Shown: positions 6,223-6,853 of the stretch, piece after piece
How the letters are laid out: each line of letters starts with the position of its first letter
Position numbering within the stretch: the first letter of the stretch is position 1
Source of the DNA: a virus
Taxonomy: Duplodnaviria > Heunggongvirae > Uroviricota > Caudoviricetes
DNA length: 7,011 nucleotides
Strand: one strand, 5' to 3'
Virus record (IMG/VR): IMGVR_UViG_2690316343_000007
The notes under the pieces: model-generated
What the model was told of the DNA's origin: nothing
Seen by the model: the letters and a program-made list of their open reading frames with translations, nothing else
The model's database searches: none
Made by a program: the position numbers and the translations under genes

Positions 6223-6238
6223 GTTTATATTGATTTTG
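6203..6238 (+). terminator. intrinsic-terminator-like hairpin at the 3' end of repeat copy B
   Basis: Perfect 8-bp stem AGCCCCTC/GAGGGGCT (6203-6210 / 6215-6222) with TCCG loop, followed by the T-rich GTTTATATTGATTTTG. Confidence 0.4.
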
Positions 6239-6255
6239 TCAGATGTGAGTAAACT

Positions 6256-6287
6256 CCTTATGGACTTTGTTGTTTTAGTCCATAAGG
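6256..6287. repeat. perfect 11-bp inverted repeat (stem-loop) overlapping the stop codon of the 111-aa ORF
   Basis: CCTTATGGACT (6256-6266), loop TTGTTGTTTT, AGTCCATAAGG (6277-6287). May be a terminator for the minus-strand gene, but the downstream U-tract is weak. Confidence 0.75.
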
Positions 6288-6593
6288 ACATATTTGCAGA
6301 GTGCAACGGTTATTAAAGCATTCATTCAATACGTTATCTGTATTTGTAGGGCATTCCTGGCTATTTTTGATTGAATTCCAGAATGTTTTATTGAATGGTA
6401 CTACGTTGTAAATGGTTACAGGTAGCACTTTGTTATTGAGCATGATGCCTGTGTGAGTCAGTGTAAATATACTTTCAGGAGGTAAGAAAGCATCCGATTG
6501 ATACCAGATTATTAATTTTATTTTACTCCATATGACTGAAAAAGATATTCCGCATGATGGCTGGATAACTGTATCAATCACAATCCACTTCAT
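6258..6593 (-). CDS. hypothetical AT-rich protein (111 aa, Cys-containing), function unknown; candidate accessory (moron) gene
   Basis: Good RBS on the minus strand: AAGGAA 5 nt upstream of the ATG at 6593-6591. Markedly AT-rich compared with the phage genes. Stop codon lies inside a perfect 11-bp hairpin. No family recognised. Confidence 0.45.
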
Positions 6594-6853
6594 TTAGTTT
6601 CCTTGTTTATGCCTTGCTGGTGATGTTCTGAAAAGTATAAATGATATTTTTGAATGTAAACCATAGAGCAGAATTATTTTTCTGATGTTGTTTATTGTTT
6701 ATTTAAATGCAGGGTGGTTTATATCTCGTCTTGTAGTTTATCCATGCATATCTGCTTGATAATCAGGTTTTTATTTAAGGTATGGTTTTGTGTTTTTTCT
6801 GTATTACATGTCAGGTATTTTAAAGAATTATTTTTCAGATGGTGGAAAGAACC

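Follow-up and report, generated by a model that had tools for sequence, protein, structure and literature searches.

iraL, an IraM-family anti-adaptor gene in an AT-rich cassette of a lambdoid prophage

The gene and its identity

The DNA analysed here is a stretch of 7,011 nucleotides (nt) from a virus of the class Caudoviricetes (IMG/VR record IMGVR_UViG_2690316343_000007), referred to below as the window, and its subject is a small gene on the minus strand close to the end of the stretch. The coding sequence (CDS) occupies positions 6258-6593, starts with ATG, and encodes 111 amino acids (aa) plus a stop codon. It is preceded by the Shine-Dalgarno sequence AAGGAA (6604-6599), which is separated from the ATG by 5 nt (ACTAA) and lies within the 5' untranslated region (UTR) defined by RACE (rapid amplification of cDNA ends). 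With a probability of about 0.95, this gene is iraL, a prophage-borne anti-adaptor gene of the IraM/IraL/RssC family whose product stabilises RpoS; the allele carries serine at codon 74 (S74), and its source name is Shigella IraM. The open reading frame (ORF) has a GC content of 34.5% and the 261-bp intergenic region upstream of it 29.5%, compared with 48.2% for the window and 48-53% for its rusA-like, Q-like, methylase, and transposase genes. A preliminary description of this DNA, made from the letters alone, had reported the minus-strand ORF with its ribosome-binding site, its AT-richness relative to the neighbouring phage genes, and a product with several cysteines and many aromatic residues, and all of these were borne out (the protein contains 5 Cys and 13 aromatic residues). 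Of the checks it had suggested, GC content and transmembrane segments were computed; the first gave the values above, and no transmembrane-like segment was found in IraL, the maximum 19-residue Kyte-Doolittle mean being 1.44. The remark that the product matched nothing familiar did not hold, since IraL is an anti-adaptor of the IraM family that has been characterised.

The gene was described in uropathogenic Escherichia coli CFT073 and Shigella sonnei (Hryckowian 2014, mBio, PMC4045071). It was named iraL in CFT073, with 58.9% identity to IraM and a location "on the potB genomic island" (PMC4045071), and its locus tag in that strain is c1429 (PMC12890032). By definition, iraL genes show at least 95% nt identity to CFT073 iraL across the full CDS (Hryckowian 2014, PMC4045071), and the window CDS is identical to the CFT073 gene at 334 of 336 nt (99.4%). 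At the protein level, identity to WP_000871291.1 ("IraM" of the CFT073 potB prophage) extends to 110 of the 111 residues. One of the two CDS differences is synonymous, and the other lies in codon 74 (window position 6373), which is TCA (Ser) here, the allele named Shigella in the sources, and TTA (Leu) in CFT073. The exact protein is present as a public entry (P0022) named "IraM [Shigella sonnei]" or "MULTISPECIES [Shigella]" and was found on approximately 1000 indexed contigs; moreover, the S. sonnei 53G chromosome is 100% identical to window 5960-7011. Among 5426 complete E. coli genomes, 2238 contain a megablast match to 6150-6900, in which the matched feature is annotated "anti-adapter protein IraM".

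Family-level comparisons gave the same assignment. The NCBIfam model NF007393 (IraM) scored 162 bits against a cutoff of 121, with residues 1-110 aligned to profile positions 1-113/114. K-12 IraM was matched at 61% identity across all of its 107 aa (E = 4e-52), and the crystallised IraM fragment, PDB 8twd, at E = 6e-31. In PHROGs, the only assignment was phrog_4407, which is labelled "unknown function". A local Pfam-A scan returned only a sub-threshold Nairovirus_NSm match for IraL and did not match PF11183 (PmrD) even at E = 10, for IraL and K-12 IraM alike, whereas in two other tools PF11183 appears in the precomputed annotations of all family members. This disagreement is a discrepancy of database version or threshold, and the family assignment was based on NCBIfam, PDB, and direct comparison instead of the local Pfam scan. 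The gene iraL is already known: its function was published in 2014, its family has a crystal structure, and there is no new kind of element here.

The breadth of the family and the pattern of substitution bear on whether the ORF is a gene at all. Among 1.84 billion cluster representatives scanned in full with HMMER, only 71 were relatives at E <= 0.001, and a profile search added members from Pseudescherichia, Franconibacter, Enterobacter, Cronobacter, Citrobacter, and Mixta. Among complete E. coli records, 1442 have an iraL-type copy as their best match (nt identity of 90% or more), and an iraM-type copy alone (60-80%) is present in 3332. The dN/dS ratio calculated by the Nei-Gojobori method was 0.146 against K-12 iraM, 0.117 against an E. 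coli O157:H7 variant, and 0.102 between those two, and by these comparisons iraL is evolving under purifying selection. The preliminary description had itself raised the prospect of a chance ORF within a non-coding AT-rich spacer, for which the low GC content and the absence of a match in the local Pfam scan could be cited. Set against the dN/dS values of 0.10-0.15, full-length homologues found in several enterobacterial genera at identities as low as 24%, a homologue with a crystal structure, and a published function at the protein level, the likelihood of a chance ORF is practically nil.

Transcript, cassette, and prophage neighbourhood

A sigma-70 type promoter lies on the minus strand at 6634-6660, with the -35 hexamer TTTACA (6660-6655), a 15-nt spacer, and the -10 hexamer TATACT (6639-6634). 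This is the pair proposed in the preliminary description; its positions are right, and it fits the published CFT073 start. The RACE 5' end of the CFT073 iraL mRNA is ACATCACCAGCAAGGCATAAACAAGGAAACCA (PMC4045071), which in CFT073 has its first base exactly 33 nt upstream of the ATG and agrees with the window at 31 of 32 positions. Mapped onto the window, it gives a 33-nt 5' UTR (6594-6626, minus strand) and a transcription start at 6626, a position mapped in CFT073 and not in this strain, 7 nt downstream of TATACT. Over the interval from -100 to +33, the two sequences are identical at 131 of 133 positions (98.5%), with base changes at -1 and +31 and both hexamers unchanged. The promoter of the iraL subgroup is characterised by at least 96% upstream identity to CFT073 and the mapped 5' end, and both were found here. 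The CFT073 fragment from -100 to +33 is sufficient for iraL expression in K-12 and at attTn7 (PMC4045071). A generic promoter scan did not list the hexamer pair, because it accepts only spacers of 16-18 nt and the spacer here is 15 nt.

With regard to regulation, expression of iraL rises in a fur mutant, and it also rises when cells are shifted from 23 to 37 °C (PMC12890032). A convincing Fur box was not found upstream of iraL; the best match, 11 of 19 positions, was no better than that of shuffled sequences, and this candidate was rejected. A second candidate was a PhoP-box-like direct repeat, TGTTTA-N5-TATTTA, at 6689-6705 (opposite strand; -63 to -79 relative to the start), which matches at 11 of 12 positions but was considered marginal, as approximately 5% of shuffles of the AT-rich region match equally well. 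This repeat, together with the induction of K-12 iraM by Mg2+ starvation (PMC10844676), would be in keeping with an iraM-like regulation in which low Mg2+ acts through PhoP as the main inducer and expression is not constitutive in log phase. Such control of iraL is unlikely: apart from the frequency of equal matches in shuffles, the repeat does not overlap the -35 hexamer and lies on the opposite strand, the inputs reported for iraL are the 37 °C shift and loss of Fur, the rise in RpoS caused by IraL occurs in log phase without stress (PMC4045071), and the upstream regions of iraL and iraM are unrelated.

The comparison with K-12 iraM (ycgW) is informative in this respect. The two genes share approximately 70% nt identity, and the homology is limited to the CDS, from about 3 nt before the ATG to the stop codon. 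K-12 iraM lies beside e14/icd, upstream of ycgX, whereas iraL lies in a lambdoid late region, so that the window gene shares neither the locus nor the regulatory region by which an iraM orthologue would be recognised, and the K-12 gene is a paralogue. K-12 IraM is a Mg2+-starvation anti-adaptor, whereas IraL acts in unstressed log phase, and the unrelated upstream DNA fits this published difference in regulation.

Within the intergenic region between iraL and the DUF1737 gene, a 21-nt direct repeat (6670-6690 and 6824-6844) was found, whose copies are identical at 19 of 21 positions. The first copy (-44 to -64) abuts the iraL -35 hexamer, and the second covers the ribosome-binding site of the DUF1737 gene, just before its start codon. 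None of 200 shuffles of the intergenic region gave 19/21, the shuffle maximum being 17/21.

At the other end of the gene, a perfect inverted repeat (6255-6266 and 6277-6288, minus strand) has arms of 12 bp and a 10-nt loop, and the TAA stop codon (6260-6258) lies in one of the arms. The hairpin at the ORF end noted in the preliminary description was therefore perfect and did span the stop, but its length is 12 bp and not 11. Folded together with the next hairpin, it reaches -39.2 kcal/mol (z = -5.3 against shuffles). It is encoded by four extra IraL codons (QQSP) and is missing from K-12 iraM, whose CDS stops four codons earlier and whose product is shorter by these residues. As an intrinsic terminator it was rejected: it has no T-run, and a terminator scan listed only the plus-strand terminator of the neighbouring small RNA (sRNA) gene. 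A dedicated iraL terminator was not evident from the terminator scan or from folding. Because a T-run is lacking, a role of the hairpin, if any, is more likely to be in the stability of the mRNA 3' end than in termination.

The gene and its upstream region form a discrete block (6223-6852) that iraL prophages carry and for which Shiga toxin (Stx) phages without iraL have unrelated DNA instead. In BLAST comparisons, homology to phi296 ends at 6222 and homology to 933W, less sharply, at 6180; both resume at 6853, 2 nt ahead of the start codon of the DUF1737-type gene. In place of the cassette, phi296 carries 231 bp and 933W 262 bp of unrelated DNA. Since homology to these phages breaks at 6222 and resumes at 6853, the block can be considered a discrete moron cassette, and the accessory block delimited beforehand at 6223-6853 coincides with it almost to the base. 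The GC content of 6233-6853 is 0.325. The earlier proposal of an independently transcribed moron agrees with a promoter of its own that fits the RACE start, with the discrete block, and with the deviant composition (0.325 versus 0.48). The proposed antisense orientation was also confirmed, as the Q-type antiterminator gene (782-1636), the DUF1737 gene, and the holin and lysis genes are all on the plus strand in the window and its relatives. These findings support iraL as a phage moron in an AT-rich cassette of a lambdoid prophage. It resembles other morons of the lambdoid Q-to-lysis region (stx, bor, and lom type) in several respects: the cassette is discrete, its base composition deviates, it carries a promoter of its own, and some of the otherwise homologous phages have it while others do not. 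Unlike the stx-type morons, iraL faces against late transcription and would not be co-induced by Q antitermination. Read-through by Q-modified polymerase, antisense to iraL, may oppose its expression on prophage induction, although this suggestion is weaker than the one made below for the cysteine tail.

The gene order is common to CFT073, E. coli 042, JJ1886, and four phage records: RusA, Q-type antiterminator, tRNAs, DUF3927, iraL on the opposite strand, DUF1737, holin, and lysozyme. The CFT073 locus shares with the window the STnc100, DUF1737, and holin neighbours as well as the orientation against the late operon. The CFT073 prophage is less decayed, whereas the window has a DUF1737 gene cut by an insertion sequence (IS) and an extra rearranged segment upstream. 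An STnc100-family sRNA gene (6043-6232, plus strand; Rfam RF02076, 132 bits against a gathering score of 47) immediately follows the 3' end of iraL in convergent orientation and ends in an intrinsic terminator (6202-6223, plus strand) consisting of a 9-bp GC-rich hairpin and a T-rich tail. This sRNA was considered as an StxS-type pR'-tR' short transcript, a kind that activates rpoS translation and would have been an apt neighbour for an RpoS stabiliser, and the candidate was rejected: the 933W homologue lies just downstream of stx2B and not at the annotated pR'/qut. STnc100 is not mentioned in the StxS paper. On the other side and divergent from iraL, the 5' part of the DUF1737 gene (6855-6981, plus strand; annotated DUF1737 in relatives) begins the late-region lysis block. 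It breaks off after approximately 42 codons, at about 6981, where the end of an IS3-family element cuts in, and homology to CFT073 ends at 6983.

Several rearrangements were observed upstream. The STnc100-family gene is present in two copies (4453-4642 and 6043-6232), and on either side of a truncated IS element lies one copy of an exact 248-nt direct repeat (4370-4617 = 5960-6207). The same IS3-family element, which from its transposase sequence may be IS600-like, occurs twice in the same orientation, at 4821-5958 (truncated within orfA at 5958) and at 6981-7011, with 6976-7011 repeating 4816-4851 at the IS end. The S. sonnei 53G locus, identical in other respects, lacks the segment 1702-5958 (with a single N at 5959 and a run of N at 1773-1959). 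This segment contains a methylase gene, three tRNA genes, a 117-aa AT-rich ORF, DUF3927, the first STnc100 copy, and the truncated IS, and its portion 3467-4634 is paralogous, at 97%, to what comes after Q in S. sonnei 53G. Either two prophages have recombined here, or the N marks a join made in assembly. The 117-aa ORF (3867-4220, plus strand) lies in a patch of 38-42% GC between the tRNA genes and DUF3927; the preliminary description had called the present gene the second AT-rich accessory gene, and this ORF is presumably the one that it counted as the first.

Fold, RssB interface, and proposed mechanism

A first AlphaFold model, built from 16 close sequences, was poor, with a predicted local distance difference test (pLDDT) score of 60; with 36 diverse sequences, pLDDT reached 83-96 over residues 1-80 (means of 10-residue blocks). 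The top Foldseek match of this model was 8twd_A, IraM in its complex with RssB, with a template modelling (TM) score of 0.89 and a root-mean-square deviation of 1.2 A over 77 columns. IraM is a PmrD-like beta-barrel, which bridges both RssB domains and covers the alpha4-beta5-alpha5 face needed by RpoS (PMC10844676). Fifteen IraM residues contacting RssB were taken from the crystal of IraM(1-78) with RssB (PMC10844676); 11 of the 15 are identical in IraL, three are conservatively replaced (T13S, L75I, and I64V), and the remaining one is H63N. IraL shares with K-12 IraM (YcgW; 8TWD) the family, length class, fold, and four-cysteine motif as well as most of the contacts.

Experimental work on iraL points in the same direction. 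Binding of IraL to RssB was demonstrated by two-hybrid and co-purification assays, and IraL was reported to bind RssB's N-terminal domain only (PMC4045071). In log phase, RpoS has a half-life of about 5 min, which deletion of iraL halves to about 2.5 min; an iraL deletion in S. sonnei results in less RpoS in log phase, and iraL on its own promoter raises RpoS in K-12 (PMC4045071). Based on its near-identity to the CFT073 protein, the window allele probably acts in the same way, through RssB binding and RpoS stabilisation. In the proposed mechanism, a transcript starting at 6626 from the gene's own sigma-70 promoter would yield a 111-aa cytoplasmic protein, whose N-terminal 78 residues would form a PmrD-like beta-barrel that binds RssB, an adaptor of the response-regulator type. 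RssB occupied in this way could not pass RpoS (sigma-S) to the ClpXP protease, and RpoS would live longer and accumulate in exponential growth without added stress. Expression of iraL would take place from the lysogen, to the benefit of the host.

The three Foldseek matches that follow IraM are PmrD structures (TM 0.70-0.75), which raises the question of whether the protein is instead a PmrD-like connector for a response regulator other than RssB, for example one that protects phospho-PmrA. In addition to the fold, the precomputed listing of PF11183 could be taken in this sense, and IraM, like PmrD, increases the net phosphorylation of its partner (PMC10844676). PmrD (PDB 4HN7, 2JSO, and 2RQX) is likewise a small beta-barrel and helix protein that binds a response-regulator receiver domain. 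However, its identity to the window protein is 13-20%, compared with 61% for IraM and 99% for IraL, it has no Cys-rich tail, and it targets PmrA and protects the phosphorylated regulator without a block of proteolysis. The RssB-contact residues are conserved in the window protein, and IraL binds RssB and alters RpoS stability (PMC4045071). A role as a connector for another regulator is therefore highly unlikely; IraL and PmrD have a common fold and probably belong to different families.

Several points nevertheless weigh against an active RpoS stabiliser at this locus. The function of the exact S74 sequence is probably, by homology, that found in the CFT073 and S. sonnei work from which it is carried over, and the contacts seen in the IraM crystal may not transfer fully to IraL. 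Position 74 is S in the window and L or I in every close relative aligned, and it adjoins RssB-contact residue 75. The published S. sonnei strain may carry another allele. At 15 nt, the spacer departs from the sigma-70 optimum. Finally, the prophage is decayed, with an IS element interrupting the DUF1737 gene and rearrangements upstream. Shigella genomes are known for gene decay. It could thus be proposed that the gene is iraL by descent and functionally impaired, either because the L74S change weakens RssB binding or because the Shigella prophage is decaying and the gene is carried along in it as a passenger, no longer of consequence, and the uniqueness of S74 among the aligned close relatives and the IS insertions and rearrangements around the gene fit this proposal. 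On the other side, the ORF, ribosome-binding site, and promoter are intact, the S74 allele is borne by the approximately 1000 contigs under a multispecies Shigella protein name, and deletion of iraL in S. sonnei lowers log-phase RpoS (PMC4045071), all of which make impairment quite improbable. A functional IraL remains the preferred reading of the window gene.

The cysteine tail, family variants, and significance

Beyond the barrel, the C-terminal region of IraL contains the motif C81-P-x9-C92-x4-C97-x4-C102-P-Y-G (codons 81-102, window 6351-6290). Conservation was examined in two family alignments of 34 and 36 members, the most distant at 24% identity. The smaller alignment has M1, W72, C81, C97, and C102 as its sole invariant columns, and in the larger one W30, C81, C97, C102, and P103 are invariant; C92 is at least 90% conserved in both. 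In these alignments, the four C-terminal cysteines are among the most conserved positions of the IraM/IraL family. The crystallised fragment ends before the corresponding tail of IraM (residues 79-107), which was characterised as flexible and less conserved (PMC10844676). In the AlphaFold model, the tail has a pLDDT of about 50-57 with a short hairpin at 97-108, and this prediction neither supports nor excludes a folded metal site. Roles of zinc or of cysteines in IraM were not found mentioned in the searched mechanism papers on IraM and RssB or in a literature search. As a tentative hypothesis rather than a result, which we would put at somewhat under even odds, the cysteine tail may be a conserved metal-binding or redox-sensing module. 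If the tail binds zinc or senses oxidation, the stability or activity of the anti-adaptor, and hence the RpoS level, could follow the metal or redox state of the cell. Such a module, if it exists, would also explain the instability and insolubility of the purified full-length protein.

A third IraM-family variant was observed in E. coli O157:H7 17B6-2 (L006 5001-5324), between the gene for stx2c subunit B and a nanS-type esterase gene. This Stx2c prophage gene (WP_001303568.1) occupies the same slot as iraL, after the toxin and STnc100 genes and before the DUF1737-type nanS, and is likewise antisense; homology of its locus is continuous with window 6014-6983 at 69%. It differs from the window gene in having 77% nt identity and a product of 107 aa without QQSP. 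We know of no functional study of WP_001303568.1, the search not having been exhaustive. In this prophage, a homologue of an RpoS stabiliser is physically linked to the Shiga toxin operon.

To the published picture of iraL, the present analysis adds a promoter prediction that fits the mapped transcription start, the edges of the cassette to the base, the third family variant in the same slot beside stx2c, and the cysteine tail as the most conserved feature of the family, which is unstudied in the literature searched. More generally, iraL shows a prophage rewiring a core stress circuit of its host, in which lysogens hold RpoS high during growth, and high RpoS in growth has been linked to differences of niche and pathotype in uropathogenic E. 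coli and Shigella.

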